Of a DNA stretch of 64,000 nucleotides, positions 31,553-57,480 are shown piece after piece; the stretch's first letter is position 1, and every line of letters begins with the position of its first letter. A program made the translations under genes and the position numbers. The DNA comes from Candidatus Babelota bacterium (GTDB taxonomy: Bacteria; Babelota; Babeliae; Babelales; JAUPTZ01). The notes under the pieces were generated by a model, which had not been told where the DNA came from, did no database searches, and saw nothing but the letters and a program-made list of their open reading frames with translations. The stretch spans positions 11,944 to 75,943 of the forward strand of contig JAUPTZ010000010.1 in assembly GCA_030917815.1 (NCBI GenBank), written 5' to 3'.

Positions 31553-33331
31553 CTAAAACGCCACCAAACAACCGGCATACATATCAACCTCTTTTGGTAT
31601 ATTTTGTCCCGCAAACGTAATAGCTCCGCCAGCGCGAAGACTAAACCAATCAGAAAGGTGATAGGTAATGCCACCTTTAATGCGATGAGCAAATTGTTCG
31701 GTATTTGCTGCGGCAAGATTGTTATCAAGCGCAATGGTGTTTTCAATAGCATAGTCTTTTACACCATCGGTAGGATCATAGAACGCCCCAAGCCACGAAT
31801 CAACCGTTCCTGAACGGAATCGTACCGTATCCTGTCGCTTCCAGTAAAACTGGTAACCGACAAAGCCGGTAATATCGGTCGTATGCGAGTGGCAGAAGTG
31901 CATATCGGCATTCGCAATCACCGAGTGCCAACTAACGTCGGCAAGCTGCTCAGAGCCCATATTTTTAATCAATGATTCGGCCGGGGTGCCACATGTTTTT
32001 TCAGCACGCGCAAGCGCGAAACGATATTCAGTATCAAAATGCATCATCATCCAAGAACGGGTCTCAACGTCAAAATGCATGCCGCCACCGATTTCAACAT
32101 GCCGTCCATTACCGGTATGAGAACGATAAGGATTACCGGTATAATTTGCTTCGTCTGAGCCGCTACCGCATGCGGTCGGCGTACGGAGCAAAGCGCTCAA
32201 GCCACCAACAATGCGGTCTCCAAAATAGTAATCATAGTAGAGTTCAAGATCGATATCTCCAAGACCAAGCTGCCGTGTTGTTTCAAGCACATAGCCACGA
32301 TCATTGAGCCACTCATAGGTGTTAGCATTAAAGGTTGAAACCATATCTTTCATACGAGCATTGATCGTATTTGTTGCACCACTACTCACCTGTGAACCAT
32401 CTGAGTTATGCGTAGACGATATCCAAACCGTTGCCTTTTTATCTTGGTTCTTTACCCGCGTTGGTGTATTTGCCGCAGAAGCTTCAGTAAGCGCAGAGAA
32501 ATCACCGGTGCCAAGGGCATAAATAGTGTCTTCATCAAGGCTTTCAAGGGTTGTCGAAATCGGCGTTGCCGAGAGTGCGGTAGAAGCAAGAATACCCACC
32601 CGTGTTCCACGTGGCACATATCCCTCTGGCGAATAAATCGCTGCTGCTTTACCGGACAAGGTCGTTCCCCCGAAGATACTAATGTAAGTATCTGGGCCGC
32701 TTACCGCAGCATAATCAACTTGCGAAGCGGAGAAATCATTTGTCGGCATTGCTTCAAGAAAATCAAGCCGATACGCAAAACCAAGCGATGAAGACGCTGC
32801 TTCATTTTTTTGAAACTTTGCAACATCTTCTGTTTGCGAATCACGACGCGAGGCGATATCTTTACGCACCGTATCTACTGCTCGTACCGGCACCTTCACA
32901 CGCACGCCCCAACGAGCTTTTCCGCCCATTACTGAACGGGAAACATTCGCAGAAAGACACATACCATTTTCATAGTATTCTACGCGAGGATCAATCTTCA
33001 TGATACGCATATACGGATTATAATGCTCAGTATTTTGCGCTACCGCACAGTGCTCAAAAATATGACTTAAGCGGAACGAATCGGCATTAAAAAAGAGTGT
33101 CGAAAGCTCACCGGTTGCAACACCATGGGAAGCAAATGCACGATGCGCGCTACGACTGTACCAATCAACATCGGCCATTATATACCAGGGAGATTTTTCA
33201 CAAGGATCAAAATCGTGCCCTACATGCCCAACCATTAATGGAGCGCGAAACTCACGCGCACCAACAGTAACGGTACTACATACAGCCATAAACACTCCCA
33301 GCGCTATGTACCGCTCTATTTTTCTTGCCAT
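31553..33331 (-). CDS. Probable outer-membrane beta-barrel protein
   Basis: Signal peptide from ATG 33331 (AGGAAAG RBS); alternating amphipathic strands; GLGDID motif; terminal strand ending in Phe (DMYAGCLVAF). Confidence 0.7.
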   Translation of the reverse strand: MARKIERYIALGVFMAVCSTVTVGAREFRAPLMVGHVGHDFDPCEKSPWYIMADVDWYSRSAHRAFASHGVATGELSTLFFNADSFRLSHIFEHCAVAQNTEHYNPYMRIMKIDPRVEYYENGMCLSANVSRSVMGGKARWGVRVKVPVRAVDTVRKDIASRRDSQTEDVAKFQKNEAASSSLGFAYRLDFLEAMPTNDFSASQVDYAAVSGPDTYISIFGGTTLSGKAAAIYSPEGYVPRGTRVGILASTALSATPISTTLESLDEDTIYALGTGDFSALTEASAANTPTRVKNQDKKATVWISSTHNSDGSQVSSGATNTINARMKDMVSTFNANTYEWLNDRGYVLETTRQLGLGDIDLELYYDYYFGDRIVGGLSALLRTPTACGSGSDEANYTGNPYRSHTGNGRHVEIGGGMHFDVETRSWMMMHFDTEYRFALARAEKTCGTPAESLIKNMGSEQLADVSWHSVIANADMHFCHSHTTDITGFVGYQFYWKRQDTVRFRSGTVDSWLGAFYDPTDGVKDYAIENTIALDNNLAAANTEQFAHRIKGGITYHLSDWFSLRAGGAITFAGQNIPKEVDMYAGCLVAF

Positions 33332-33370
33332 TGAACTTTCCTTTCTTATCAACCGTGCGCTCATCATCAT

Positions 33371-38506: not shown

Positions 38507-38586
38507 ATAAACTACCCTTTTAAAAACAATACGCCGCAAACATGATAATCGAGGCTATCGCGAAGGTGTCAATGAAACCGCAATTT

Positions 38587-41500
38587 TTATCGTCGACTCG
38601 ATGATCTAACCCGCTTCCTCTGACGCGCTCGCCCCTTTACTTGCACTAAAGTTGGAGACTGCATCGGTTTACCAGTCGCAAAATACGGAGAGTTTTTCGG
38701 TATGACAATGTAACCTGCATAGTCGCCACTAGTTTCGGCCGCCGCAGAAAAATCGGCTCCATATCCCTGCACTCGCCCATTCTCAGCTAATATAATTTGA
38801 TCGGGTGGCATAGTAACGGCACCGGCCAGAGACCCGTTGCCAAGCGCCGCAGCTATGGTCGCGTCAAGCACAAAGTCTTTATGCTCATCGGCCCGCAAGG
38901 TGCCGCCAAAATCAACATAGAGAATCCCGCCCTGATCAATAGTCTTAACCGGATGGCGCGGCGGAAGCCCATTCGACATGCGAGAGCCTAAGCATAAGTT
39001 GTCACCAGCAATGCGTAAGGTACCACCACCGGTTGCTCCTGGATCAAATTTCTTCGTCTCATCAAACGTTACCCCACTCAATGGAATCGTCCATGGGGAA
39101 TAATTATCAGTAGAGCCAAATGACGTAGGCCATCCAATATTCATGCGTGATTGATGTGCAAGAAACAATATCTGCGTTGATCTGTCTTTAGCAGAAATCC
39201 CCGATTCACCAGCGGTCTGCAATGCTAATTCAATCGTTGATGGCTGAAGCATCGTCGCGCCAGGAGTTAACGCGCTACGATAAATATCAAAAAATCCATC
39301 GCGCAGCGAACTCGTAGTCTGCACGCCGTCAGAAGAAAGCTGCACAGAAGCGCTCAACGTACCATCGCTCATACGATTTGCAATCGATCCCAGTTGAAAT
39401 ACCGAGCCACGGCGGCGACCGGAATCATGAGTACGGCCCCGTTGATACAGTATTAATGCTGAGCTATTATCCCCGTTAGCAGTATCGCTCCCGCCATCCG
39501 CACTATCATTTTCGTGAACGTTCCAGCGAACACCGGCACTCACCAGCGATTCTTGGCAGGCAATAATACTATTGCATAACGAAATTGTTGGACCCCAAGT
39601 ATCACCAAAGAGCGTAGAGCGCTCACCGCCAATAATAGTTGGTAATGCACTCGTAGTTACGCTAGGCAATTGCATTTTCCCTAAATTACGCGAAACATCA
39701 CTCTGTATATACCAAACATTATGCAAATGAGTCGGTGCATTCACTAAAATTGATGACGAATTATAGCGCCCATATAACGCATTTTTCGTTAATGGTCGTA
39801 TACCATAGAGCGGATGCTCTGACGGTGCCGATACTTGACGTGCCGCACTGTGTGATGACTGCGCAAAAAAGGCATCACCACTAGCTTTTAGATGATTTAA
39901 AAAGAGCTGCTGAACCAATGCCAATGGCGGAAATACGGCAGGCAATAGACCAGAATCACTTGTCTCATACCAGGTACCACTTACAAAATTGTAAGCCCAT
40001 TCAACAAAAACACCTTTCCCATCAAGGAAAACTTGCCAACGACCAGTAGACGCATTATACGTCCATTCATCGAAGTTTGGCGTGTACATCCATGAATTTG
40101 AACTATCCTGCTGTGTCCATTGTATGGAACTATCGCCAGCACTAACCCAATATGGCGATATGCCATCAAAATAATACCAAGAATTAACCGTAGGATCGCC
40201 ATCACGAACCCAACAGTTATGTAATGTCGTATAACGCCAGCACGCAGTATCAAACACCCAGACCCACTCGCCACTGGTGTCATTGTAGCGTACTTGATTT
40301 TTCCCAGAACTATCGGTCCAGTAATAAGAATAGCCTTTTCGAACATCATAGGTCGCCCGGCCATTGCCAAAGCTATCACTACCAACCCATGCCTGCGCAC
40401 CCGAGGCCCAGCTCATGAGTGGTGAAGTGTCAAATGCATGAGCATTGATCAAGGCTCTCATCACCTGATAAGTCATTATGAATTGCGTAAGAGGACGTGG
40501 CAGGATAAAGCCGCCAGGAAGTGACGACCATCTATTGGCAATAAAGTCATAGGTAGATGAAGTGTAGCGATCAGTAGTTGGGTGGTACGTCGTGCTTCCA
40601 AGCCGCGCACCGCTAAAACGATGCCCATTATACCTATAACGCCACTGTTCTTCAGCCGACAAACTGGTCCACCTTGTGGTCGCGGGGTTATAGCTCCAAG
40701 CATCGCTCTCATCAAGATTGTTTTGCCACATCAACGTACTACTATCATAGGTAAACGATTCAGGACGATAAGGATTCAAATAATTCTCCCATACCCACGA
40801 ACCGTCAGTAGAAAGCGAAAACTGCACTCTATCATCGATCCAGGACGGCTCATCAACCGCTTTAAATGAAACGGTAATCTGATGTGATGATTGTGTACTA
40901 TCATAAGAAATCCTCATCCTATTGCTTTCGTTTGCACCCAACCAGGTTCCGTCATCTTGCCGCTCAAACGTTAAATCGGTCACTCGACCAAATGAAATTC
41001 CAGGTTCTCCAATCACCGCATCAAAGACGGTGCTGATAACGGTCGTTTGGCGCACTACTGAAGGAGGTTGGAAATCGGTGAGATCTTCGGGCGGCGTACC
41101 GGTTACTAAATACCATGTCAGCGATGGTTCATCGTAACGCCATACCGAAGCATCGCCATTCGCCAATAAAGCACCCCATGAACAGGTAAGTGGCTCATAG
41201 CGCCAGGTAATGTCATTGTGCACATCATACCAGGTTGCGCTTAAAGGCGTATAACGCCAATCGGCAGTAACATCTTCCGGATGAGCCGAATCATAGTGCC
41301 CCCATATTTTAAGATCATTACTACTACTCAGTAGCTTCCACGAATCATGGCTAGGCCCCGCAAGCACGTGCGTTGTAGTATTATACGTCCAGGTTTTTGT
41401 TGAAATCTCAAGCTCCTGCACCCATGTCCATGCACCGGTACTAGGATTATAGGTCCAATGAACTGAGGAATCATCAGTTTCAGAAGTAATGGACGGAGTC

Positions 41501-44500
41501 CCTTCCTGCACCAGATCAACGGTCACGGTGCTTCCCGGCCTTACCCATTCATAAACGTCAGGCTGATCATCAATTGCCGTAAGACTTCCGGCCAAGCGTG
41601 GCTGCGGAAAGAAGCTTTGCGCAGCCAACTCGTACATCACGTTATTCAGATAATACTGATGAATCAAGGCAACTGGTGGCATTTCAACACCGGTTACAGA
41701 ACCGGTAAGCCGCTCCCAAAATCGTCCCGCCGTTTTGTATTGCCATGATGCTTCCCAAGCCGGCGCACTCCAAACGTCATCACTTGATGAGTAATACCAC
41801 AGTACCCCATCGGTCACCGAACTCTGCCAGCTATCATCGCCTGGATTATAACTCCATGTTACCGACTCGTCGGCATTTGTCCAAGTTCTCGCTACTCCAT
41901 CGTACGTCCATCTCGTAGCATCGATATTCCGCTCCATCCATACGCCAGTATTTACATCATACGAAGCAATGTACGGATTATTAGTCTCAAAATAATTCTC
42001 CCACGTCATCAGTGCCGTAGCAAAATTAATGGTAAAGAAATTTTGCTCACTATTCCCGGTCCATACCGCAGCCGCTTTTGCTGGCGTATAGGAAATATCC
42101 TGAGTTTCAGCCGCATTAAGCGATTTCCAATAAGAAGGAAACGCCTCGTCATCGCCAGTAGCTACAATTTCTGCAAAAGTGCTCCAACCAAACGGGCCAC
42201 CACTTTTATCAACCCCACCGGCAAACCTGACTGCATCCATTATCGATGCAATAAAGGTTTTTTGGAGCACAATCAATGGCGGAAACCCATTGGCAGGCCG
42301 ACTAAGGTTCGTGGTAATCTGTCGCCAACTATGTGATAAAAATTCATAGCGATACTGCCACAGCCGTTCACCATCGTCATGCACCCATAAGCTCGTAGAT
42401 GCATCATAAAGCCAAGCGGCTACACCATCGTTCTTAATCCATGTACCATCTGAAGGAGAATAGCGCCACTGGTCACCATCAATTCCACCGGTTACATTTA
42501 CCCAAACAAGAGTCTCTTCGTCTTGTATCCAAACCGCTTCGTCATGGCTCTGATTATAGATCCAGACAGTACCAAGCGACTCAGCCCATCCTGTCTCTGT
42601 GGCAACACCATCAATACTTTGCTCCCACGTAAAATTACCCGTAATATCATCAAAAGAAAAGGTAAGCGCACCATTATCAATTGGCCGTGGTCCTACAAGG
42701 CGCCCCGCGAGAGTATGCGTAGTTGGGCTATATATTACCGCAAAATCTACCGGATCATTTATCACCGTAAGCCTACCATCGCTATCAAAAAAAACTCCCC
42801 AATTGGTAAGTCCACTTTCCGAACAGACTCCATTGGCCAAAAATGCGCGCAAAATTCGCTGCATATACAACTGTTGCACGAGCGGCAGCGGCGGGGTTTC
42901 ATCAGGCAATATCGCATTGAATGATACAGCTCTCCACGGTGATTCAGTCGACTTAAAGTCATAAAACCACTCACTGTTATCACCTACGTGAGTCCACAGA
43001 GAAGTATCACCATCCCAACGCCAATGCCCGCCCCAACGGCCAAGATAATCCAATCGCCAAACCTGATCACCACCCGACGTTTGTGTCCATTCCCGACTAG
43101 TGCGATCATATGACCACGTATCACCACTCAAAACATCTCTCCACTCGGCGGTAACCTCATCAAAAATATATGCATTGCCTTCGCTTATATAAGAATCCCA
43201 TTCGCTATGCCCCGTATCTACCGCATAGGTAAATGCAATATCGGCCCCATCCCCCAGCGCCCTGCCATTATTTCTCCAAGTAATAGTCGTTGCGTGGTCA
43301 TTGTCAATACCAGAGGTGGTAAGAACCGCGTAATCATTAAACCGACCCCCGGTCATATGCCATTCGGTAGAACTAGTTTGAGTTACTGCTTGAAGCGGAC
43401 CTAAAATATTCCATGCCGACCCAATAATCGCATTCTGCACTGCCACCAATGGCGGAAGCCCACCATCAGGCTGACCTAGATGTGATGATATTTGTTGCCA
43501 TGCACCGGCCAAAAATTGATAACTCCACAGCCAAGTACGCTCACCATCATCATAAGACCAATGCCCGGTTGAAGGCGCATAGACCCACACCGTATCACCA
43601 CCATCTTGCGTCCAATGCGTACCAGTTAGACTAGACTGCCAGGTTGTCTCACCAGCTGTCCACGTATTAGCGCTTGGATCATATACCCATTCGTCCGCAG
43701 TCCTATCATGGGTCCACGTTAATAAATCAGCGTCATATCTCCATACCTCAAACCACAAAGGATCTATTGAGCGAAACCATGTAAACGAACCTGTTTCAAC
43801 CGTATAATCAAAACCAAATGTACTATTAGCGATCAAAGAATCACCGTTGGTATAACGACCGCTAAGGATTCCACCATCCGTAGTGCAGGTCACCTCCAAA
43901 TCACCATTCCCATTAACTGCTTGATACGTAGCTAAAGATGGCGAAGCAAACACCCAGTCGGCCGTTGCAGTTTCAGCAAATACACCAGCACCTAAGAACG
44001 CTGAAATAATACGATGCACATACATTAGTTGCACCAAAGGTAATGGTGGCATAAATGAAGGAAGTGGCGCTGCAGGGGTTAATGGCTCCCAGGGACTGTC
44101 AGGCGCGGTAAAATCATATACCCATTTTGTACCGGTTTCCCTGTCGGTCCACAACCCATTAACGCTATCCCACGCCCAAGCTTGTCCAGAATGACTCCAT
44201 GCCTCACTCTCAGAATCATACACCCATGCAGTAGCACCAGAGTCGGTTGTCAAAACTCCGGTTGCTCTATAATAGACCCATGGTTCAACCCCATCGACAA
44301 AATTATTCCAAGTCGAAGTACTAGCATTAAAAACCGCAACAGGGTTAGTATCTTCAGGAGTAAGCCACGTAGTAGAGCCGGTGCGAAGTGATGCGGTAAA
44401 ACTGGTGTCAGAATCTTCGCCCAGAGCATTCCCCTTATTGCGCCAAGCAATGGTTGCATCGGCACCATCTTCTGCAAAAGTAAGTGTCGCGTAGTCATTA

Positions 44501-47500
44501 AAATAGCCACCTTTAAGTAGCCAGACGCCATCCTCAACCGATGTAACTGCCGGCACATCGTCAAAAACCCCGGTAAACGATTGAATAAACGCCTTTTGCA
44601 CAACAATCAGTGGTGGCAGTCCGCTAGCTGGTAGCCCTATATTGTCGGTAATCTGCTCCCAAGTATTAGTGAGCACACGGAAGCTATACTGCCATGTATG
44701 CTCACCATCATCGTATGACCAATGACCATTTGATCGCGTATACGTCCAGACCGCATCGCCATCGTTCTGCGTCCACACCAACCCAAGCTCATCCGACTGC
44801 CAGGCCCCAAGATCTTCAGGCCCGGTCCATGTATTCACTGCCTCATCGTATGACCACTCCTCACCGGTTTGCCCGTCCAGCCACAATGCACTCGTGCCAT
44901 CGTATACCCATACCAAAGGTAGTCGTGGGTCGATTGTCACCTGCCACGTAAAGCCACCGGTATTAACATCATAGTCAACGGTAACCGCATCATTTATAAA
45001 GGCATAATCACTAGTACGAGACCCGGTCATCGTACCATGTGAAGCATCATAAGAAACGGTGAAATCATGAGTACTATTAGTTAAGGTAAACAGAGCCGAA
45101 GAAACAATCGGTGAAGCAACAATCCAATCAACTTTACCGCTCTCATCAAATATTCCATCCAATAAGAACTGCCGCAAGATACGGGCGCTATGCATCTGTT
45201 GTACCAATGGTAACGGCGGAGTCACCCCTGGTAGCGTTGCATTAAGCGATAAGGCATTCCATGGCGTATCAGGCATAGTGAAGTTATAGCCCCATGTGGT
45301 CTCATCAGCAAGGTAATACCATACACCGTTATCAATATCCCAGGCCCACTGTTCACCACTATTGGCAACCCAAGAGCTCGTTACATTATCATAGGACCAC
45401 ACTCGATCACCACTATCGGTCTGCGTCCACTGAATCACCAGCGGATCATAGCTCCAGGTCTCGCTACCGCCAGTATCGGCCCACGCACCAGTACTTGCAT
45501 CAAACGTGTATGAGTCAGATGTCCCAACATTATTGAACCAGACACTATCTCCGGTAGTCAGTGTATAATTAAAAGATGCGCTTGGATCACTACCCAAATT
45601 ACTGCCAAAGTCTCGCCACATAATAGTAGAACTGCTAGTGTCAATTGGCGTCTCAAGAACAGCATATTCGTTGAGATAGCCACCAGTTAATATCCAATGG
45701 CGCGAATCATACTGCTCAACATCAAACAAGGTACCCAACGCATTCTGCAAAGAATCTATAATAGCTTTTTGTACAACCACGAGCGGCGGCAGGCCACCAA
45801 TCGGCTGACTATCAAACGAAGTTACTTGCTGCCAGACACCAGCCAATGCTAAATAGCGCCACTGCCATACCACATCACCATCATCATACGACCAAACACC
45901 ACCTGAATTGTATGTCCAAACCGTATCCCCACCATCTTGTGACCATTCTCCGGTAATCTGATTAGACTGCCATACCACAGCGTCGGGCCCATTCCACGTA
46001 TTAGTATTAACATTGAATGTCCATTCTTCACCGGTCTGCTGATCGGTCCATATACCAAGATCGGAGCGATACTGCCATCCCTCTACCACCGGACTATTAA
46101 TCGTACGCAACCAGGTAAAATCACCATATTCTACGTTGTAAGAATCAAGCGTATATGATCCATTAATAAAGTCGTAGTTGCTCACTAATGAACCTGAAAT
46201 CTCACCGGCAACCGTATCATATGCTACCGTAAAAGTTTCGGCCTCATTGATCGCTATATAGGTACGGTCAGCAAGACTGTCTATCATCCATGCCGCATCG
46301 CTACTTTCAGCAAGCACACCACCACTTAAAAATTGATTCAGAATAAAGTGCATATAGACTTGCTCAACTAACGGTAATGGTGGCAGTTTATCTGGTAACA
46401 CTACTTCAGCCGCCAAAGCCTCCCAGGGGCTATCAGGCTGTGTAAAATCATAAAGCCATTGATACCCGGTCGTCACATCGATCCACACAGCGGCACGAGC
46501 ATCCCACATCCAATTATGCCCACCAGCAGTTATCCAGTAACCGGTTGTTTCATCAAACGACCAGGTTAAATAACCGCCTGAGACCCGGGTCCACGTAACA
46601 TCTTCGGCATCATATTCCCATACGATATCGGTACCAACTTTATACCACGCATCAGTAATAGTCGTTGCCGGATCCTCGCCACCATCAAGATACCAAGAAC
46701 TCTGGCCGGTACTTACGTTGTACGTAAAAGTGACTGCTGGGGTACTCTCTAAATCGTTTCCATTACTCCGCCACTCAATCGTTGCGTTTGAGCCATCTTC
46801 TAACACGATCAATGTTGCATAATCGTTAAAATAACCACCAACCAGAGACCAGCCATTTTCATCATTTTGCGTAATGATAATCTCACGGTCAACGCATATA
46901 TCTGCAAGGCCATCAAAGAATGCTTTTTGCACTACAACTAACGGTGGCAGCCCTGTTGACGGCATGCCATCAAATGAGGTTACTTGCTGCCACGTTTGTG
47001 ACAACAGAATATACCGCCACACCCATAGATGATCACCGTCATCGTATGACCAGTGCCCATTCGATCGAGTATAGGTCCACGACGCATCGCCATCATTCTG
47101 TATCCACTGTCGATGGGCATCATTGTAATGCCAAGTAACCGCATCGGGCCCTGTCCATTGGTGCGTGTCAAGAGAATAATGCCACTCTTCACCGGTTTGC
47201 TGATCGGTCCAAATTCTAGAGGTACTGTCGTATAGCCACTGCTGCGGCCATTCAGGGTCAATCGATAACTGCCAACTAAAATCACCTGACGTACGATCAT
47301 GCGCAACATTCATATATGATAAAAGCGAACCTTCTAACCTGTTCTCTTCAGGATTGTAGGTAACAGTGAAGTTATTACCGCCGTTCTCAATCGTCAGCAG
47401 TGCATCTGATAACACCGGCGAACTCAAAATCCAATCAGGCTCTCCTTCATCGTCAAAAGCTCCTGCGACCAAAAACTCATTTAAGAGCCGAGCCGCATAC

Positions 47501-50500: not shown

Positions 50501-53500
50501 GAAATTTGCAACCAACTATCGGTTACCATTTGATAAGACCATTGCCACGCACGCACACCATCGTTATGTGACCAATACCCGGTTAATGGATCATAGACCC
50601 AAACAATAGAACCGGAATTTTTAGACCATGATAACCCGGTAACATCTGACTGCCACGTAGTACCACTGTGACTCCACTTATGCGTATCATCATTATAAAG
50701 CCATTCTTCTTCGGTCTGCAGATCGGTCCACGTCTTCGCGTCAGCATCATACATCCATTTTTTTTGATGCTCAGGATCAAGCCGCAATTGCCATATAAAA
50801 GAATCCGACTCACTATTGCTGTATACCGTTACAAAAGAAAGCAAATGCCCCTCGATTTCATGCGAGAACGGATAATAAACCGCTGTAAAATTATCATCAC
50901 TATTGTGTACCGTAAATGAGGCCTCAGAAACCACCGGAGAGCTAAACAGCAAATCTTCTTTACCACACTGATCAAAAACACCCATAGGCGCAAACTGATT
51001 CAATACATAGACACGATACAACTGCTGAACCAATGGTAACGGTGGCCTTACCGTTGGTAACGGTGCATCAGGAGTTAACCCCTCCCATGGATCTTCCGAA
51101 ACCGTAAAATCGTACAGCCATTGTGTCGTACTGCCGCCAATATACAACCAAAAAGCGTGTTCAGCGTCCCAATGCCAGCTCTCACTACTATCGGCAACCC
51201 AGTGGCCTGTCGTACTATTGAATGTCCATATCTGACTACCGCCAATCGTTTGTGTCCAAGATGTCTCTTCCGCATTAAACACCCATACATCACCGCTGAT
51301 ATAGTCGGTCCATACCCCTGTTGTTGCATCAAATGTATAAGCAGGAAGCCCGCTAACAGCCGTATACCAGTGCACAGACCCACTCTTGAGTGAGTACAGG
51401 AAATTAGTATGGGGCGTCGCCGCTAAATCATCCCCTCTATCACGCCAGGTTAACGTTGCATCAGCATTATCTACCGGCATGGTAAAAACTGCATAATCAT
51501 TAAAATAGCCGCCACGAGCGATCCATCGATCACTTTCATGCGTCATAATGGCAGTATCAGTAAACACATCAAACAAAGTATCGATTACCGCCTTATGAAC
51601 CACAACCAGCGGAGGCAATCCTTGCGCAGGTTCTCCCGCATGAGAAGAAATTTGCTCCCAAATTCCGGTCAAAAAGATATATTTCCACTGCCAAACAAGA
51701 TCACCATCATCATACGACCAATAGCCGGTTGCCGGTTCGAAAGTCCATAACGACTCAACCTCATCACTGACTTGTATCCACTCCATAGTTATCGGATTGG
51801 ACTGCCACGTTACTAGCGGTTCACCACCGGTCCAAGTGCTACTATCTAGATCGTATGCCCACGTTTCATTAGTCTGCCCATCAACCCAAATTTGCTCATC
51901 ACTATCGTACGTCCATACATCTGTCCATCGCGGATCGAGGGATCGATACCACGCAAACCCACCAGTATCAAGATTGGCAGCAACCGATACGGCTCCATCA
52001 GCAAACAAATAGCTGCTCACATAATTTCCAAGAATATAACCAGCATTGCTATCAAAACTAGCGGTAAAATCTCCATCACTATTGTTCACCGTCAATATAG
52101 TATCATCAACCACAGGAGAATTCGTTATCCAATCGGTTTTACTGCCTTCAGGTAACACACTGGCAAACAGGAACAGCAGTCGCTGACTAAACATTTGCTG
52201 CACAAGAGGCAAAGGAGGAATCTCAGTAGGAATCGATGACGCCATATCAACCGATTGCCACTCATTACGAACAAAATCATAAAACCATCGAAGCCCTGTA
52301 ACGGTATCAATCCAAACAGCACTGTCCACATCCCATCGCCATGGAAGTCCTCCAGACATCAACCAATAACCAACTGTTCCATCAAAATACCACTCGCTAT
52401 CCCCGCCAACCGTCTGTGTCCATGTTCTACCATCACTGTCATAGGTCCATTGCTCACTCTCATCGGCATTGGTCCATAAAAACCCGCTAGCCGAATAGGT
52501 ATACGCAGGGTCACTATCAGCAATAGTATACCAGCTCATATTTCCCGTACTCAGTGCATAGGAAAAATGTGTCTCGGGTGTTGCACCCAAATCATTGCCA
52601 TTACTACGCCACGTAATAGTTGATAATGAACTATCGGTTGGGATTGTGAAAGTAGCATAATCATTAAAGCGGCCGCCGGTTAATTTCCAATGCCCTGACG
52701 AAGTCTGAGAGATAACCGATAATTCGTTAAAGACAGTCCAGAGCGAATCAATAAACGCTTTTTGCACCGCTACTAAGGGAGGCATGCCACCAACCGGCAC
52801 ACCAGGACGAGAGGATATCTGCTGCCAGACGCCAGCCAACGCTAAATAACGCCACTCCCACGCATGAGTACCATCGTTATGCGTCCAATGTCCGGTTGAT
52901 GGTACATAGATCCATGCATGACTACTGCCGGCCTTTATCCAGCTCAGCCCATCTTGCCCCGACAACCAGGTTGTCGTGTCATCAGGGGCGATCCAGGTAA
53001 ACGTTGCATCATCATAGGTCCATTGCTCAGCCGTTTGAAGATCGGTCCATGTGGCCAAATCAGAATCATACTGCCACCGCTCTGCAAATCGCGGATCAAT
53101 ACTACGTGCCCACACAAAGTCGCCATATTCAATGCTGTAAGAGACAAGCGAAAAAGTTTCATTGGTATATGGATGTCCACTAATAAAACTTCCATGTACA
53201 TCCCCGGTAATCGTGCTACATCCGACGATAAAATCACTCACACTGTTAACAGCCGAATAGGCGCCAGTACTTGGCCCGCTCACGATCCAATCGGCCTTTC
53301 CACTTTCTGCAAATACACCGGCCGCTAAAAAATTGTTCAAAATTTTGCGGCTATACATCTGCTGCGTCAGCGGCAACGGTGGTGTTACCGATGGTAGATC
53401 GGCGGCAGACAGCGGTCGCCATGGGGCGCTCGGCATCGTAAAATCATAAATCCACTCAGACCCATCGGCAACATGCTGCCATTGTCCTGCATCAGGTTGC

Positions 53501-56500
53501 CACAACCAAGAAACAGAACCACCACCCCCGAGATCATACACCCAATGCCCAGTCGCCGTATCGAATGACCACACTTGGCTGCCACCAACCGTATGAGTCC
53601 ATATCTTCGCTCCGGCATCATAGACCCAGACCTGGCTTCCACCAACATTAGACCAATGACCAGTATCGGCGTTGTAGTTATAAGCAGGACTTTCGCTTGC
53701 CGCAGTGTACCAGGAGCTATAAGCAGTCCTCATGTTATAAGAGAAGCGAACATCGGGTGTTGCACCTAAATCATTACCGTTATTACGCCACGCAATAGAG
53801 GCATAAGAATCATCTCCTGATACCGTAAGCGTTGCATAATCATCAAAATATCCTCCGGTCATTTTCCAATGGCCCGCAGAGGTTTGAGTGACTACACAAA
53901 GATCAACAAACACCGTATAAAGGGTATCAAGAATTGCTTTCTGCACAGCTACAAGTGGTGGTAGCCCATGCTCCGGCTCACCCTCATACGCCGATATCTG
54001 CTGCCAACCGCCGGCCAGCGCTAAGTAGCGCCATACCCACGTGTGAAGACCATCATCATAGGACCAATGACCATTTGATGGAGCATATGTCCAAACAGCA
54101 TCCCCGTCATTTTGCGTCCATTGCAACGCATTGACATCGGACCGCCACGTTGTTATCTCATCGGAGCCGGTCCAAGTATTCGTATCGGCATCATACGACC
54201 ATTGCTCACCAGTTTGAAAGTCCATCCATAATCCAGGACCAGAGTTGTACTGCCATGTTTCAGGCCAGCGCGAATCAACCGAACGTTCCCACGTAAAATC
54301 GCCGGTTTCCATAGTATACGACACTAAAGAAACAGCCCCTTCAAGAAAAGCATAAGCCCCCACAGAACTCCCCTGAATATCACCGCTAATCGTGTTGTAG
54401 GTAGCGGTAAAATCGGCAGCGCTATTAGTAGCAGTATAGATACCAGAGATTGGATTTCCCACGATCCAATCGGCTTTTCCACTTTCAGCAAGAACACCAT
54501 CAGATAAAAATTCATTATATACATGACGACTATAGAGCTGCTGCACCAATGGTAACGGAGGCGTACGACTTGGTAGAGATGCACCATACGACAAAGCTCG
54601 CCACGGGCTACTTGAAGCGGTTAAGTCATACAGCCATTCGGCATTTCCATCAACATCAATCCAAACCCCTTTGCGTGAATCCCAAAGCCAATGAACACTG
54701 GAACCGGTACTCGTCCAGTAGCCGGTAGTATCATCAAAATTCCAAATTTGGGAGCCGCCATGAGTCTGCGTCCACGTTTGAGCCAATGAGTCATAATGCC
54801 AAATGAGACTACTTGCAGCATCGTGCCATATACCGGTACTACCAACATACACGGAGGATGGACTACCACCAGATCCGATATACCAAGAGCTATCCCCAGT
54901 GCTTACAACATGACTGTAATGAGCATCTGGCGTAGTACCCAAATGGTGCCCATTATTTCTCCATGCGATAGTTGCTGAGGCACCACCACTCGGTACCGTG
55001 AGCGTTGCATGGTCATTAAAAATTCCGCCGGCCAGCGTCCATTGTGCAGCAATTCCGGAACTCGCACCGTTGTCGGTAACGGCCGACAACATGCTCACGG
55101 CATTCCACAAAGAATCAATAATCGCTTTTTGCACCACAACCAATGGCGGCAACCCTGTTGCCGGTTCACCGTCATACAAAGATACTTGCTGCCACGTGCC
55201 AGCAAGAGCCAAATATGACCATACCCAGGAACGCTCACCATCATCATAAGACCAATATCCTAATGATGGAGCATACGACCATACCGCATCACCATCATTC
55301 TGTGACCACTGCATAGTAAGCAAGTCCGATTGCCAAGTCGTTGAGCCACTATCAGGGCCGGTCCATGTATTTGTAGCCGGGTCAAAAGACCAATATTCAC
55401 CGGTCTGTCGGTCTGTCCATCTATGTGTTGTACTGGCATATACCCAGGACTCTGGCCACTCTGGATCGACCGTTCGTGTCCAAGTAAAATCACCATGCTC
55501 TATGTCATAAGAAGTTAAGGCGACCGCAGCATCAATACAACCAGTGTCACTCACCGACTGGCCCTGCACAATGCCTGACACCGTATTGTAGATCATCGCA
55601 AAATCGGCCGACCCATTTACAAGAACGTACTCACCAGCATCAAGATTACCCACAGTCCAATCGGTCGTACCAGTTCCTGCAAGAATACCGGCTGCAAGAA
55701 ATTTATTCACAATATTACGTATAAAAACCTGCTGCAACCAGGCTCGCTGAGTATCACCAGCCGTCGGATCAAATCGCAAAAAATCTCCATCAGTTGCGAC
55801 CCACAATGAATTTTGAGGCCGCCAGAACCACTGGTTTGGCAAAGAATCATTCCACAGGCCAAGTGTACCGTCATACATAAATGCTGCACTTCCTCCGACA
55901 GTCTGGTGCCAGCCTTTAGTCTCAACAACGTAGTGAAACACGCTACTATCACCCGAAGTCGCCCACAAAGAGGTAGCCCCATCAAAGGTATAATCCGGAT
56001 TTGCTCCGCCAGGAACATTCCATCCGTAACTACCGGTTGCTAGGTTATACGAAAAAGTCGCATCAGGAGTTGAGAGTAAGTCATCTCCTTTATTCCGCCA
56101 TGCAATAGTCGGAGCGGAGCCGTCTGCAGGTACAGTTAAAAGTGCATAATCATTGAAAAGTGCCCCACGCAACTCCCAGGTCGTACTGCTCGTTTCGGTA
56201 ACCGAATATTCATTCCCAAAAACGGTGCGAATTGATTGGACGATAGCCCTTTGAGCAACAACAAGAGGTGGTAGCCCGCTAGCCGGCTCACCATCATGTA
56301 CAGATACTTGCTGCCAACCACCAGCCAGCATCATATAGCGCCAAACCCAAGCATGAACACCGTCATCATATGACCAATGACCATCAACCGGTGTATAGGT
56401 CCAAACGGCATCACCATCGTTCTGTGACCACTCAAGACCAAAAGCATCTGACTGCCATGACTCATCTCCTGGCCCGGTCCATGTATTGGTAGAAACATCA

Positions 56501-57480
56501 AACGACCACTCTTCACCGGTTTGTCCATCAACCCATTTTTGCGTTGAGCCACTGTAAGCCCATGAATCTTGCCACCAAGTATTCAACGTGCTGCTCATAG
56601 TAAAATCATTAAAAGTCATGTCATGAGTTAATGACAGAGCATCCAGAACAACAACGTCATAAAGTAACGCACCATCATTAATAAATGTTGCAGTAAAAGC
56701 ATTATCAGCAACCTGATACACTGCCTTAAAATATCCATCATCATTCAGCGCAGTATATTCAGACGAATTAGAATGCCCCGAATCAAAAAGGAACGTCGTA
56801 TTACCTTCTCCATCAAGAGCTCCGGAACGTAAAGCCGCTGTTAATGTCTCTCTTGCATACATTTGTTGAAGCACCGGCAGCGGCGGCTTGATTGCAATGG
56901 TCAAACTCTCCGGATTGGATACCGCAGCCCAACTCTCCGCAGTAAAATCATAGCTCCATGTAGTGCCCGAAGGAATATGGCTCCATACAAAAGTAGACCG
57001 ATCCCAAGCCCATGCAACAGGACTACTGCTTGGACTATACAGCCAATGCCCAACAGTCCCATCAAAGGCCCAGACTTGACTGCCCCCAGCAGTTTGTGTC
57101 CACGTTTTTGAACTTGGTGTATATAACCAGGTTACTCCACTCAAGTTCGACCACTGATGCGTTGATTGCGTAAAGGTATACTCGGTTGTATTAGTACGAT
57201 TTTGCCAATCAATATCACCAACTGATAAATCCCATACCACTACGAATGCAGAATCTTCTATAGGCAAACTATGGTGATCCCGCCAAGTTAATGTAGCAAT
57301 ACCAGTAAACCGATCATTATCAAGAGCAACCGAATCCTCATATGGGCCACCGGTCAGATACCATCCAACTGCATGGGAAGCCGAAATCTGAGTATGCTCC
57401 AATATATAAGGATCCACAGAATTGCACACACCACTGTAGAAAAAAAGAACTAAAGTTAAGAGGCAACGCCGCATATTCAT
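38587..57480 (-). CDS. Giant (6297 aa) exported Trp-rich repeat protein with C-terminal module B
   Basis: Uninterrupted 18.9-kb ORF; signal peptide MNMRRCLLTLVLFFYSGVCNS; recurring WxYD...W hairpins, GLPPLVVVQKA, GGYFNDYA and PPLPLVQQ motifs. Confidence 0.92.
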   Translation of the reverse strand: MNMRRCLLTLVLFFYSGVCNSVDPYILEHTQISASHAVGWYLTGGPYEDSVALDNDRFTGIATLTWRDHHSLPIEDSAFVVVWDLSVGDIDWQNRTNTTEYTFTQSTHQWSNLSGVTWLYTPSSKTWTQTAGGSQVWAFDGTVGHWLYSPSSSPVAWAWDRSTFVWSHIPSGTTWSYDFTAESWAAVSNPESLTIAIKPPLPVLQQMYARETLTAALRSGALDGEGNTTFLFDSGHSNSSEYTALNDDGYFKAVYQVADNAFTATFINDGALLYDVVVLDALSLTHDMTFNDFTMSSTLNTWWQDSWAYSGSTQKWVDGQTGEEWSFDVSTNTWTGPGDESWQSDAFGLEWSQNDGDAVWTYTPVDGHWSYDDGVHAWVWRYMMLAGGWQQVSVHDGEPASGLPPLVVAQRAIVQSIRTVFGNEYSVTETSSTTWELRGALFNDYALLTVPADGSAPTIAWRNKGDDLLSTPDATFSYNLATGSYGWNVPGGANPDYTFDGATSLWATSGDSSVFHYVVETKGWHQTVGGSAAFMYDGTLGLWNDSLPNQWFWRPQNSLWVATDGDFLRFDPTAGDTQRAWLQQVFIRNIVNKFLAAGILAGTGTTDWTVGNLDAGEYVLVNGSADFAMIYNTVSGIVQGQSVSDTGCIDAAVALTSYDIEHGDFTWTRTVDPEWPESWVYASTTHRWTDRQTGEYWSFDPATNTWTGPDSGSTTWQSDLLTMQWSQNDGDAVWSYAPSLGYWSYDDGERSWVWSYLALAGTWQQVSLYDGEPATGLPPLVVVQKAIIDSLWNAVSMLSAVTDNGASSGIAAQWTLAGGIFNDHATLTVPSGGASATIAWRNNGHHLGTTPDAHYSHVVSTGDSSWYIGSGGSPSSVYVGSTGIWHDAASSLIWHYDSLAQTWTQTHGGSQIWNFDDTTGYWTSTGSSVHWLWDSRKGVWIDVDGNAEWLYDLTASSSPWRALSYGASLPSRTPPLPLVQQLYSRHVYNEFLSDGVLAESGKADWIVGNPISGIYTATNSAADFTATYNTISGDIQGSSVGAYAFLEGAVSLVSYTMETGDFTWERSVDSRWPETWQYNSGPGLWMDFQTGEQWSYDADTNTWTGSDEITTWRSDVNALQWTQNDGDAVWTYAPSNGHWSYDDGLHTWVWRYLALAGGWQQISAYEGEPEHGLPPLVAVQKAILDTLYTVFVDLCVVTQTSAGHWKMTGGYFDDYATLTVSGDDSYASIAWRNNGNDLGATPDVRFSYNMRTAYSSWYTAASESPAYNYNADTGHWSNVGGSQVWVYDAGAKIWTHTVGGSQVWSFDTATGHWVYDLGGGGSVSWLWQPDAGQWQHVADGSEWIYDFTMPSAPWRPLSAADLPSVTPPLPLTQQMYSRKILNNFLAAGVFAESGKADWIVSGPSTGAYSAVNSVSDFIVGCSTITGDVHGSFISGHPYTNETFSLVSYSIEYGDFVWARSIDPRFAERWQYDSDLATWTDLQTAEQWTYDDATFTWIAPDDTTTWLSGQDGLSWIKAGSSHAWIYVPSTGHWTHNDGTHAWEWRYLALAGVWQQISSRPGVPVGGMPPLVAVQKAFIDSLWTVFNELSVISQTSSGHWKLTGGRFNDYATFTIPTDSSLSTITWRSNGNDLGATPETHFSYALSTGNMSWYTIADSDPAYTYSASGFLWTNADESEQWTYDSDGRTWTQTVGGDSEWYFDGTVGYWLMSGGLPWRWDVDSAVWIDTVTGLRWFYDFVRNEWQSVDMASSIPTEIPPLPLVQQMFSQRLLFLFASVLPEGSKTDWITNSPVVDDTILTVNNSDGDFTASFDSNAGYILGNYVSSYLFADGAVSVAANLDTGGFAWYRSLDPRWTDVWTYDSDEQIWVDGQTNETWAYDLDSSTWTGGEPLVTWQSNPITMEWIQVSDEVESLWTFEPATGYWSYDDGDLVWQWKYIFLTGIWEQISSHAGEPAQGLPPLVVVHKAVIDTLFDVFTDTAIMTHESDRWIARGGYFNDYAVFTMPVDNADATLTWRDRGDDLAATPHTNFLYSLKSGSVHWYTAVSGLPAYTFDATTGVWTDYISGDVWVFNAEETSWTQTIGGSQIWTFNSTTGHWVADSSESWHWDAEHAFWLYIGGSTTQWLYDFTVSEDPWEGLTPDAPLPTVRPPLPLVQQLYRVYVLNQFAPMGVFDQCGKEDLLFSSPVVSEASFTVHNSDDNFTAVYYPFSHEIEGHLLSFVTVYSNSESDSFIWQLRLDPEHQKKWMYDADAKTWTDLQTEEEWLYNDDTHKWSHSGTTWQSDVTGLSWSKNSGSIVWVYDPLTGYWSHNDGVRAWQWSYQMVTDSWLQISSHSGTPSGGLPPVLVVQKAFINALWNALNDVAVVTEESPTEWIARGGYFNDYAVLTVPDDSDPATIAWRNKGNDLGATSDINFLRILTTSDESWYLSGSEDPAYTFDGTESTWSNAAGTNVWDYDASSKTWTQITGGSQVWTFDGVAGEWIYHNGSDEAHWIWNGTNALWHDVATGSDWLYDFVETSSPWESSNMADATVPTITPPLPLVQQMYSQNVLNAFLVEGVFVGSGQADWIFDTDVVVDELLRVQNGIGDFVATYSVNDATIEGHSISSYSFADDAISVTANTHTGDFTWNQSINAQWQQQWVYDSVSHIWTDNQTGKQWLYDVAINAWADADEVIWYSNPITRQWSDGVSSWYYIPSTGYWSYDNGILVSQWHYNYLAGTWKQIASGDDGHAYPLSFPPLVVVQRAYLDSLQNVFSDNAVILQTDDGEWTALGGHFNDHAMLTIPDDISTATIVWRNNGYDLETDPVIGFSHALATGDTSWYVDGSSDPAYTFVAESGTWTQISDSNEWVYAAVSRTWTHSSGDDLPWSYDTTTGYWVYGSGSEDETHWMWHADKALWQEVATTVYWIYDLTADDSQWKPLTSTESAPSITPPLALIQQLYSKRLVYEFLLAGAFDSSEKNDWIFNTPPVADTVFMISNDANDFTAVYSKQAGSLEGNFSNPYSLATGSVAVSLNTALGSFTWQRFLDQRLPEEWAFNTVWTDGQTGEQWIYDSDTLTWHNGVDATEWSGDETGLVWSKRDSSVSWTYDLSAGYWTHNDGENQWNWRYLFFAGMWQPYTAYDARPADGFLPLAIVQKVFVDSLSTLVGNTTIDVSVDEDSGEWTLQGGFFNDYATITPSDGFDAVLEWRNNGIDLEVDPAVNFSVAVGTGNILWYLDGADDPAYTYDATTGTWTDVATEDTWAYDASAQTWTQTHGGSQVWTFNATTGYWMYGNTTSSPVDWLWQADTGLWQHVAPYNEWLYDFTASDHPWIALTPDAEIPTTTPPLPLVQQLYAARLLNEFLVAGAFDDEGEPDWILSSPVLSDALLTIENGGNNFTVTYNPEENRLEGSLLSYMNVAHDRTSGDFSWQLSIDPEWPQQWLYDSTSRIWTDQQTGEEWHYSLDTHQWTGPDAVTWHYNDAHRQWIQNDGDASWTYTRSNGHWSYDDGDHLWVWRYILLSQTWQQVTSFDGMPSTGLPPLVVVQKAFFDGLADICVDREIIITQNDENGWSLVGGYFNDYATLIVLEDGSNATIEWRSNGNDLESTPAVTFTYNVSTGQSSWYLDGGEDPATTITDAWYKVGTDIVWEYDAEDVTWTRVSGGYLTWSFDETTGYWITAGGHNWMWDARAAVWIDVTTGYQWLYDFTQPDSPWEALAAEVVLPDKLPPLPLVEQVYMHFILNQFLSGGVLAESSDAAWMIDSLADRTYIAINEAETFTVAYDTVAGEISGSLVSNYDFINGSYTLDSYNVEYGDFTWLRTINSPVVEGWQYRSDLGIWTDQQTGEEWTFNVNTNTWNGPDAVVWQSNQITGEWSQDGGDTVWTYNSGGVWSYDDGDVVWQWRYLALAGVWQQVTSFDSQPIGGLPPLVVVQKAIIDSLQNALGTLFDVEQYDSRHWILTGGYLNEYAVLETPIDTSSSTIMWRDFGSNLGSDPSASFNYTLTTGDSVWFNNVGTSDSYTFDASTGAWADTGGSETWSYDPLVIQWTQTDSGDRVWSYDNVTSSWVANSGEQWAWDIDNGVWYYLADETTWGYNFTMPDTPWNALSLNATLPGVTPPLPLVQQMHSARILRQFLLDGIFDESGKVDWIVASPIVSSALFTLTNSTHDFTVSYDASHGTMTGSRTSDYAFINDAVTVDYDVNTGGFTWQVTIDPRLPLVWVYDGTSALWLDGQTGEEWSYDEAVNTWTGPEDLGAWQSDELGLVWTQNDGDAVWTYTRSNGHWSYDDGEHTWQYSFRVLTNTWEQITDNIGLPASGLPPLIVVQKAFIQSFTGVFDDVPAVTSVEDGVWLLKGGYFNDYATLTFAEDGADATIAWRNKGNALGEDSDTSFTASLRTGSTTWLTPEDTNPVAVFNASTSTWNNFVDGVEPWVYYRATGVLTTDSGATAWVYDSESEAWSHSGQAWAWDSVNGLWTDRETGTKWVYDFTAPDSPWEPLTPAAPLPSFMPPLPLVQLMYVHRIISAFLGAGVFAETATADWVFASPSLATYQAVNGNGDLEVTCTTDGGILSGRYTNGDSLIANSTFGFDYTVETGSFTWFRSIDPLWFEVWRYDADLLTWTHDRTADEWVYDPSANTWTAGETTWQSSLTGTHWTQDGGDTVWVYAPSTGHWSYDDGERTWLWSYQFLAGAWQQISSHLGQPDGGLPPLVAVQNAIIGSAWNILGPLQAVTQTSSTEWHMTGGRFNDYAVLTTSGIDNDHATTITWRNNGRALGDGADIAFTYAVDTGHSEWDSYISEGNAYIFDEVTAEWRDVLSGDTWSYDRTSREWTQTSGGDQVWRLDYLGRWGGHWRWDGDTSLWTHVGDNSEWFYDFKSTESPWRAVSFNAILPDETPPLPLVQQLYMQRILRAFLANGVCSESGLTNWGVFFDSDGRLTVINDPVDFAVIYSPTTHTLAGRLVGPRPIDNGALTFSFDDITGNFTWEQSIDGVATETGWAESLGTVWIYNQSHDEAVWIQDEETLVWVNVTGGIDGDQWRYSPSDGTWIKNDGVAAWLYDASTSLWVHDDGERLWQYRYEFLSHSWRQITTNLSRPANGFPPLIVLQKTFIASIMDAVRFAGGVDKSGGPFGWSTFAEIVATGDDEAFPSYWKSLNAAETQDISYTPAKAAAVWTGNSEQNFFTINFATALMTWENYFETNNPYIASYDVNTGVWMERNIDATRWTYDGVARTWTNADESVTWSYNPGDDSWQSSVTDGVLWYYSSSDDVWSAPAWEASWQYKTAGRFWERLTGSVTGVEMPPVALIHQYYLNNVMYELAAQSFFPQPRLAGSLTAIDDQPDVYEWVRPGSTVTVDLVQEGTPSITSETDDSSVHWTYNPSTGAWTWVQELEISTKTWTYNTTTHVLAGPSHDSWKLLSSSNDLKIWGHYDSAHPEDVTADWRYTPLSATWYDVHNDITWRYEPLTCSWGALLANGDASVWRYDEPSLTWYLVTGTPPEDLTDFQPPSVVRQTTVISTVFDAVIGEPGISFGRVTDLTFERQDDGTWLGANESNRMRISYDSTQSSHQITVSFKAVDEPSWIDDRVQFSLSTDGSWVWENYLNPYRPESFTYDSSTLMWQNNLDESDAWSYNPATTRWTSLSAEEQWRYRYNGHRFSGARLGSTTYHPTTDRYTSSTYDFIANRWSSLPGGFILPRPLTQFIMTYQVMRALINAHAFDTSPLMSWASGAQAWVGSDSFGNGRATYDVRKGYSYYWTDSSGKNQVRYNDTSGEWVWVFDTACWRYTTLHNCWVRDGDPTVNSWYYFDGISPYWVSAGDSSIQWTQQDSSNSWMYTPNFDEWTYNASTGRWQVFLDGKGVFVEWAYNFVSGTWYETSDSGLLPAVFPPLALVQQLFLNHLKASGDAFFAQSSHSAARQVSAPSEHPLYGIRPLTKNALYGRYNSSSILVNAPTHLHNVWYIQSDVSRNLGKMQLPSVTTSALPTIIGGERSTLFGDTWGPTISLCNSIIACQESLVSAGVRWNVHENDSADGGSDTANGDNSSALILYQRGRTHDSGRRRGSVFQLGSIANRMSDGTLSASVQLSSDGVQTTSSLRDGFFDIYRSALTPGATMLQPSTIELALQTAGESGISAKDRSTQILFLAHQSRMNIGWPTSFGSTDNYSPWTIPLSGVTFDETKKFDPGATGGGTLRIAGDNLCLGSRMSNGLPPRHPVKTIDQGGILYVDFGGTLRADEHKDFVLDATIAAALGNGSLAGAVTMPPDQIILAENGRVQGYGADFSAAAETSGDYAGYIVIPKNSPYFATGKPMQSPTLVQVKGRARQRKRVRSSSRR
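42200..56950 (-). repeat. About 12-13 degenerate coding repeats, ~1.17 kb (~390 aa) period
   Basis: GLPPLxxxQKA-type motif recurs near 56270, 55145, 53955, 52780, 51610, 50465, 49280, 48105, 46945, 45785, 44610, 43450 and 42280. Confidence 0.88.

Follow-up and report, generated by a model that had tools for sequence, protein, structure and literature searches.

Giant surface proteins built of repeats are well known from bacteria. Single-layer sheets of the OspA, TCP and MORN type are stabilised by cross-strand side-chain ladders, and in the choline-binding, CROP and glucan-binding families aromatic residues form the ligand sites. Far less can be said of the Dependentiae (TM6): they parasitise protists, occur widely and are almost uncultured, and to our knowledge neither the way in which they recognise a host nor their route of entry has been established. 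Here we describe a protein of 6297 amino acids (the giant), encoded in a 64,000-nucleotide window from the genome of a Candidatus Babelota bacterium (assembly GCA_030917815.1, contig JAUPTZ010000010.1, positions 11,944 to 75,943 of the forward strand), whose repeat module is previously undescribed. We lean slightly towards reading the giant as a Sec-exported surface fibre or adhesin of ~700 kDa made by an obligate intracellular, protist-associated member of the Babeliales (Dependentiae/TM6).

The repeats of the giant had been placed at 39850..57400 in an initial annotation of the window, and motif and profile matches give practically the same limits (Table 1). Searching with a profile of the ~390-aa period (hmmsearch) yields about 30 half-units, as first proposed: one half-unit in front, 13 full periods, and 3 half-units behind them that resemble the first half. 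The counts by type also hold up. Where 13 units of one type and about 13 of another had been claimed, there are 12 strict matches to the GLPPLVVVQKA-type motif, 374-396 aa apart, plus a thirteenth, degenerate copy (FLPLAIVQKV) in period 8, and 14 matches to the PPLPL-type motif; over both helix motifs the spacing is 374-405 aa. The divergent units that had been noticed just before the C-terminal module (module B, below) are recovered by hmmsearch as 3-4 half-units, and such half-units are present in all family members, including the short forms of 1600 aa. Two details of the original description do need revision. What had been taken for two alternating types of half are homologous (hhalign probability 99.3%, E 1.6e-20, 182 columns), and the building block is therefore a single module of ~195 aa; and the Trp residues reported every 7-10 positions follow, within the hairpin run, a strict nonapeptide register with the consensus [T/V]-W-[T/S]-Y-D-x-x-x-x. 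The interval from one Trp to the next is exactly 9 in 164 of 396 cases, compared with 14.8 ± 3.7 (maximum 27) in 1000 shuffles, and of the 15 columns that do not vary among 32 aligned periods of three species, 13 hold Trp. Periods of the giant are 24-53% identical to one another, which we read as the divergence of an old array.

The mature protein has a calculated mass of ~701 kDa and an isoelectric point of 4.2. Its signal peptide was assigned by reading the sequence alone, as a typical hydrophobic leader, and a hydrophobic leader likewise starts its orthologues in two genomes of the same genus (G001 and G002). The composition fits the earlier description of an acidic region poor in Lys: Trp accounts for 397 of 6297 residues (6.30%) and Lys for 1.19%, there are 765 Asp plus Glu against 262 Lys plus Arg, Thr, Ser, Asp and Gly make up 8-10% each, and Cys is scarce. 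By a crude call on the 1.2-Mb genome, which gave 922 open reading frames (ORFs) of 100 aa or more, the genome-wide means are 1.15% Trp and 5.2% Lys (1.06% and ~5.2% once the giant is removed). The giant gene takes up 1.6% of the genome's DNA and the protein 1.7% of the coded residues, yet it holds 9.4% of the Trp codons (397/4230). Neither the TrpA nor the TrpC family was detected in this 98%-complete genome, and both were present in 14 of 14 control genomes; the organism is thus a probable Trp auxotroph, in keeping with the original remark that the protein would be costly for such a cell. That a genome of this size, apparently without the means to make Trp, spends so large a share of its Trp codons on one protein makes the giant a prime candidate for a host-contact apparatus.

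AlphaFold2 (AF2) modelled period 3 (53383-54561) with a predicted local distance difference test score (pLDDT) of 89.9 and a predicted template modelling score (pTM) of 0.83. In each half of the model, a helix of 16-18 residues directly after Pro-Pro-Leu is followed by 5-6 longer strands and then by ~10 short strands of 4-6 residues each with 4-residue turns between them, a secondary structure that fits the earlier picture of aromatic hairpins closed by a PPL helix. All but one of the 27 Trp residues of the modelled period lie in strands, normally at strand position 2. Since a Trp at position i and a Tyr at i+2 point to the same side of a strand, one face of the ribbon would be aromatic and the opposite one would display Thr, Ser and Asp. 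The period is accordingly predicted to be an antiparallel meander that shows no obvious second layer, an assignment of class only.

Fold searches with this model returned loosely similar sheets. Foldseek against the PDB matched it to teneurins, Rhs cores and WD40 proteins, with template modelling (TM) scores of at most 0.19 and root-mean-square deviations (rmsd) above 20 Å. A Foldseek-independent search peaked at Z 8.1, for a sheet domain of TarM, and also listed barrels, TCP/SAS-4, OspA, polo-box and MORN4 (6jle_A, Z 5.8) chains; when the top 1000 Foldseek matches were realigned, engineered OspA (2af5) came first (Z 8.6, rmsd 2.7 Å, 102 residues) and the CPAP TCP10 domain next (4bxr_A, Z 7.3). 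Because Z of about 8 is background for the tool, we take a fold class from these matches and no family membership. The best structural analogues are nevertheless single-layer beta-sheets, which makes the elongated shape of the long stalk that had been proposed plausible; the binding of glycans or lipids by the Trp array, the other part of that proposal, we would call possible.

The architecture had been described as unrecognised, and so it remains in the libraries searched. No Pfam family matched the giant at E≤0.1 (the whole protein, scanned in two pieces), and this includes the repeat, the one place where such a match would have told against the description; no NCBIfam family matched its C-terminal 1137 aa, the period profile found no PDB sequence at E≤1, and the ESM Atlas gave no usable match for the period. 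Against the viral structures of BFVD, Foldseek matches of the period model reached a TM of at most 0.16, so a viral origin of the period is not indicated. The RTX nonapeptide (GGxGxD, HemolysinCabind) is a different one: it has no Pfam match here, and the consensus is [T/V]WxYDxxxx. CW_binding_1 likewise has no Pfam match on the giant, in agreement with the earlier view that the consensus is unlike that of choline-binding and CROP repeats. A full-text search of the literature found no mention of the repeat, nor of any beta-helix surface protein in Dependentiae. As far as these sequence and structure libraries can tell, then, the repeat unit, its nonapeptide Trp register and its attachment to a split beta-helix appear to have no match.

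Against 1.84 billion representative proteins, the period profile gave 49 matches at E≤1e-3. Eleven of these reached E≤1e-30: the giant itself, proteins of 7212 and 4060 aa, six of 1595-1804 aa, one of 1229 aa and a 213-aa fragment. A word-indexed protein search with period 3, limited to proteins of 689-2000 aa, returned a single protein (P0002). The weak matches fall on the Trp-hairpin part. A Pfam scan that covered 31 of the 48 non-self matches (strong members of the family were excluded, as were nine short proteins) showed them to be Tectonin/Kelch propellers (7 of the 31 with Tectonin), five DUF3078 proteins and assorted others; hhalign aligned the period profile to a Tectonin protein with a probability of 38% and to a DUF3078 protein with one of 9%. 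We therefore read the weak matches as sharing a local hairpin motif, which falls short of demonstrated homology, and rejected homology to the Trp repeats of the DUF3078 proteins on the latter value. Those proteins (P0017, P0021, P0031, P0036 and P0047) themselves carry long runs of Trp hairpins of ~10-11 residues (xxVWxxNDSxK) that Pfam does not annotate, an array that is probably analogous to that of the giant and convergent.

Among 261 genomes of the Babeliales the period profile matches three, all of which belong to the genus of the window (completeness of the other two, 66% and 83%). A scan of genome contigs with the repeat found only those of G001 and G002, and a scan of metagenome contigs added one locus (L063), so the Trp array appears to be restricted to a single genus plus a small number of metagenomic relatives. 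The number of periods varies widely: 13 in the giant, 19 in the syntenic orthologue of G001 (8608 aa), one in that of G002 (1600 aa) and 1-2 in the six proteins of 1595-1804 aa. In a quick maximum-likelihood tree of 59 periods (IQ-TREE; four rows from P0009 and two others, on long branches, were left uninterpreted), the last period of the giant and that of the G001 protein group with the only period of certain ~1600-aa forms and represent the ancestral copy. The remaining periods, 12 from the giant and 18 from G001, form one clade (support 99) that holds several orthologous pairs plus lineage-specific duplications. Periods of the 7212-aa protein (P0003) fall in a separate clade with nearly identical recent copies; the array has thus undergone at least two independent expansions and continues to change.

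The repeats end in module B, for which AF2, from an alignment of 30 homologues, predicted a right-handed parallel beta-helix (pLDDT 73.8, pTM 0.77). In a VIA-wide structure search all 50 listed matches were right-handed parallel beta-helices (Z 7.4-10.2, 140-229 residues aligned), among them adhesins, autotransporter and other type V passengers, pectate lyases and tailspikes; the best was SRRP (5nxk_A, Z 10.2, rmsd 4.0, 184 residues), and UpaB and Vag8 both reached Z 9.1. The Foldseek rows belonged to the beta-helix class as well, but all had E>0.03. The model thus conforms to the pectate-lyase-like right-handed beta-helix fold. Residues 5903-6260 of the giant are 34% identical by BLASTP both to the C-terminus of a neighbouring 1181-aa protein (p1181; E 5e-47) and to the middle of a neighbouring 1722-aa protein (p1722; E 1e-43). 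The N-terminal parts of the same two proteins match another domain, module A, which belongs to an 886-aa protein (p886) encoded directly upstream of the giant (E 5e-71 and 6e-54, respectively). The cluster therefore contains an A-B-C protein (p1722), an A-B protein (p1181) and a split pair, with A carried by p886 and B by the giant. The two genes of the pair overlap by 4 nt, stop on start, both halves of the pair have their own signal peptide and their own N-terminal Trp units, and the A/B split and the gene order recur in G001, G002 and L063.

When modules A and B were modelled together, the complex had an ipSAE of 0.81 (median of 3 runs), compared with 0.00 for the best of three controls; 116 of 157 solved complexes and 2 of 215 mismatched pairs attain this mark, a calibration that is only roughly valid here, where our own alignments were used. 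The runs share at least 49% of their contacts, with a partner pLDDT of at least 71. The predicted contact lies between the C-terminal rungs of A (498-532 of the fragment) and the N-terminal ones of B (26-49), at the place where the chain runs on covalently in the paralogues. The prediction thus supports an end-to-end docking of module A on module B.

The beta-helix proteins also have a regular genetic partner. The 605-aa protein (p605) encoded next to p1722 (the stop of the one gene and the start of the other are directly adjacent) has no Pfam, NCBIfam or PDB-sequence match; it is possibly an outer-membrane protein. The module B family occurs in 106 of the 261 Babeliales genomes, mostly in single copy and in ORFs of 1300-2000 aa, and the p605 family in 150. 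In 19 of 20 module-B genomes that were fetched, a p605-like match lies 2.1-3.2 kb downstream on the same strand, and in the only other one module B sits at a contig end. By these counts the beta-helix protein and a ~600-aa partner with a signal peptide and a C-terminal Phe make up an order-wide two-gene cassette. As the cassette is order-wide and the Trp array limited to a genus, the Trp-decorated split pair is a genus-level elaboration of it. A further protein on another contig (C5:83898-89324, minus strand, 1809 aa) has N-terminal Trp hairpins, a PPL-type helix, a long helical middle and, at the C-terminus, module C; together with p886 and the giant, it suggests that modules A, B and C of an ancestral A-B-C protein each exist as a separate Trp-decorated chain.

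Table 1. Features of the window (window coordinates; residue numbers are those of the giant unless another protein is named)
Feature	Position	Strand	Basis or remark
Giant gene, 6297 aa + stop	38587..57480	minus	single uninterrupted ORF
Predicted Sec signal peptide, residues 1-21 (MNMRRCLLTLVLFFYSGVCNS)	57418..57480	minus	read from sequence
Repeat region, residues 27-5867	39880-57402	minus	motif and profile matches
Leading half-unit, type B, residues 27-192	56905..57402	minus	hmmsearch, period profile 220-387, E 1e-30
13 periods of ~390 aa, residues 199-5267	41680..56886	minus	motifs, alignment, hmmsearch, AF2
3-4 divergent half-units, residues 5268-5867	39880..41679	minus	hmmsearch, E 2e-11, 7e-11, 4e-12
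Module B, residues 5881-6260, predicted right-handed parallel beta-helix	38701..39840	minus	BLASTP and AF2
Polybasic C-terminal tail (KGRARQRKRVRSSSRR)	38590..38640	minus	on an otherwise very acidic protein
p886: signal peptide, Trp-hairpin N-terminus, module A (p886 residues 347-880)	57477..60137	minus	BLASTP
p1181: paralogue with modules A+B in one chain, without Trp array	60226..63771	minus	BLASTP
p1722: paralogue with modules A+B+C	33371..38539	minus	represents a family found across Babeliales
p605: signal peptide, C-terminal Phe	31553..33370	minus	adjoins the 1722-aa gene
Six tightly packed same-strand genes (1181, 886, 6297, 1722, 605, 396 aa)	30282-63771	minus	~33-kb cluster
Lon-type protease, 927 aa	23-2806	plus	AAA+ at 157-296 and 496-626, before Lon_C
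Fic/DOC-domain protein, 373 aa	16684-17805	minus	Pfam E 3e-18

Several smaller observations complete the description of the locus. A polybasic tail like that of the giant, which could be an anchoring or sorting signal, ends the proteins of G001 and G002 as well as P0010 and P0014, and p1181 has none. For p1181 the ESM Atlas returned only a 0.79 match to an unnamed cluster, and the 396-aa gene at the end of the cluster has only a sub-threshold match to DUF1349 (E 0.024; 14.8 bits, where the cut-off is 32.4). A promoter and terminator scan upstream found no more sites than in shuffles. Elsewhere in the window, the Fic/DOC protein may be a host-modifying enzyme. The genome also holds very large ORFs that are not Trp-rich (0.3-0.6% Trp), at C10:6293-22489 (plus strand, 5399 aa) and at C14:98-16112 (plus strand, 2325 and 3026 aa).

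What is known of the organism and its relatives is consistent with a life inside protists. The Chromulinavorax paper (PMC6561590) describes the cultured Dependentiae as parasites of protists and reports signal peptides on 44% of the coding sequences of that genome. In our genome, about five genes for TLC-family ATP/ADP translocases, four of them clustered (C11:19422-27663, with C2:42749-44092), fit energy parasitism, and the Chlam_PMP family was not found.

From these elements we propose the following arrangement. The shaft of the giant would consist of the ~30 copies of the ~195-aa module, each with an amphipathic PPL helix, a small sheet of 5-6 strands and ~10 short Trp strands; each short strand would place a Trp, usually with a Tyr two residues later, on one face, so as to build a continuous aromatic ladder along a narrow meander sheet whose opposite face carries Thr, Ser and Asp. 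With ~33 strands per period, ~0.48 nm per strand and 13 periods, the fibre would be ~0.2 µm long if the modules are roughly collinear, and gain and loss of periods would tune that length. At the base, module B would stack end-to-end on module A of the co-translated 886-aa protein, restoring the A-B helix that p1181 and p1722 each contain within one polypeptide, and the beta-helix family would be coupled genetically to the conserved 605-aa putative outer-membrane protein. The result would be a multivalent, acidic, aromatic-laddered filament projecting from the cell, used for host attachment or uptake or forming a fibrous coat on the infectious stage. Because no outer-membrane translocator or anchor signal is recognisable, we infer surface display from the analogy of module B with beta-helix adhesins. 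The proposed role in host contact follows from the same analogy together with the parasitic lifestyle and the variation in copy number, and further from the acidic, Lys-poor composition and from the finding that three different proteins bear Trp units at their free N-terminus.

A number of points weigh against this reading. Nothing resembling an outer-membrane translocator, sortase signal, type I secretion signal or lipobox could be recognised, and in particular Pfam and NCBIfam found no autotransporter barrel (PF03797), two-partner secretion domain, POTRA or ShlB in the giant, p886, p1181, p1722 or p605; all six genes of the cluster lack any Pfam or NCBIfam match above threshold. No RNA run holding the stretch was listed in the sequencing-run search, and the N-terminus of the giant has no distinct head or tip domain. 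On the structural side, the single-layer sheet comes from AF2 and from weak analogies: the alignment behind the period 3 model has 32 rows, all of them internal repeats or from two orthologues, the fold matches all stand at Z of about 8, a level that the tool calls common, and the aromatic face was assigned from strand geometry and not from model coordinates. The two halves of a split gene are, moreover, a class that the complex-prediction tool itself warns is prone to pass.

The missing tip domain also speaks for another explanation, in which the giant is a passive coat or spacer, a fibrous, protease-resistant layer without a specific ligand that guards the extracellular stage or enlarges the particle. 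Its Lys-poor (1.2%), acidic and Cys-poor composition suits such a layer, as does a length that differs between close relatives. We consider it rather unlikely all the same, since strict conservation of an aromatic pattern of the exposed type, if it served only as a spacer, would be expensive for a cell that is probably auxotrophic for Trp, and p886 and the 1809-aa protein of contig C5 carry Trp units too, at their distal N-termini, which suggests that these units are the working end. If the Trp units do work by binding, the giant might instead be a multivalent lectin whose hairpins are degenerate Tectonin or Kelch propeller blades that hold host or prey glycans, a reading near to the one first proposed. 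Aromatic platforms commonly stack on sugars, the pattern W-x-Y-D-x-x-x-x-x-W resembles the Tectonin/Kelch blade hairpin ('vW.f(n/d)p.t..W'), and in the 7 of 31 scanned weak matches with Pfam Tectonin the profile match lies on or beside that domain. The giant itself, however, has no match to Pfam Tectonin or Kelch at E≤0.1, the hhalign probability of 38% is low, the array repeats every 9 residues and not every ~35-50, and AF2 predicts an uninterrupted meander without four-strand blades, with Foldseek propellers at TM 0.11-0.19 and rmsd >20 Å; this lectin reading thus strikes us as quite unlikely.

The teneurins and type VI secretion Rhs cores that head the Foldseek results for the period (probabilities up to 0.97), and the 'Y-D' dipeptide in the giant's sequence, could be taken to indicate a YD-repeat shell or toxin carrier. 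This is very improbable: the same matches have TM 0.13-0.17 and rmsd >23 Å, VIA gives Z ≤6.2 over 75-135 residues, Pfam RHS_repeat does not match the giant, the strands are only 4-6 residues long in a sheet that helices interrupt every 195 aa, and the C-terminus is not a toxin domain but a beta-helix common to non-toxin paralogues. Finally, the gene comes from a metagenome-assembled genome and could in principle be an assembly artefact or a decaying repeat, for which we found nothing else in favour and which we regard as scarcely credible. The frame is open over 18.9 kb, and contigs from four DNA runs (one freshwater study; three of the runs may be the source of the assembly) span 38400-57600 with zero indels and one substitution; an apparent joint in this comparison was disregarded, its sides being only 21 nt. 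At 24-53% identity an assembler could neither collapse nor mis-join the periods, and Tandem Repeats Finder detected no DNA-level tandem repeat in the array (longest period tested 500 bp), from which we conclude that the array cannot be an assembly artefact. Invariant Trp columns over 32 periods of three species, and syntenic orthologues of 8608 and 1600 aa, are equally hard to reconcile with decay.

A bolder version of the filament reading, which we put forward as unlikely, is that the module represents a new fold class, a natural helix-punctuated single-layer sheet with a continuous Trp/Tyr ladder, of which ~30 copies make a ~0.2-µm acidic filament that departs from the seam of the split beta-helix and serves as bait or grapple for phagotrophic protists. 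On this version the aromatic face could bind host surface glycans multivalently, and the filament could also make the particle large enough for protists to take it up, a role supposed for the fibrils of giant viruses that infect the same hosts. The lineage expansions, from 1 to 13-19 periods, would then tune the reach of the fibre to different hosts. The Trp module is in addition a potential natural model of single-layer beta-sheet stability and a design scaffold, and the split beta-helix with its predicted re-association is a test case for natural protein complementation.

The described systems nearest to the giant each share one of its features. The central sheet of OspA with its engineered extensions, the TCP (G-box) domain of CPAP/SAS-4 and MORN repeats resemble the predicted period as long, single-layer antiparallel hairpin meanders of elongated, rod-like shape, at Z values that are background and with no sequence relation; the strands of the giant are shorter (4-6 residues), a Trp is invariant every 9 residues, and, unlike in those proteins, each of the ~30 copies of the module brings in a helix and a small sheet, at intervals of 195 aa. 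Choline-binding, CROP and glucan-binding repeats are likewise tandem aromatic hairpins (~18-20 aa) of extracellular proteins, but they have another consensus and no helix cap, and no chain with their beta-beta-solenoid was among the listed fold matches of the period model. Module B recalls the beta-helical adhesins and type V passengers (UpaB, Vag8, TibA, Fap2, HMW1 and SRRP; Z 8-10.2 over 140-217 residues), which are also secreted, and the conserved neighbouring gene for a possible outer-membrane protein is reminiscent of two-partner secretion; in contrast to those adhesins, the predicted helix is divided over two polypeptides, with the repeat array joined at the split. In size and organisation the giant resembles SiiE, Embp, the 7651-aa adhesin of Mobiluncus and the Giant proteins of A. 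kunkeei, which are reported to be very large extracellular proteins with tandem beta-rich repeats in variable copy number that dominate a small genome. Those proteins use Ig-like/BIg, FIVAR-GA and other catalogued domains, whereas the unit from which the giant is built matches no catalogued family.

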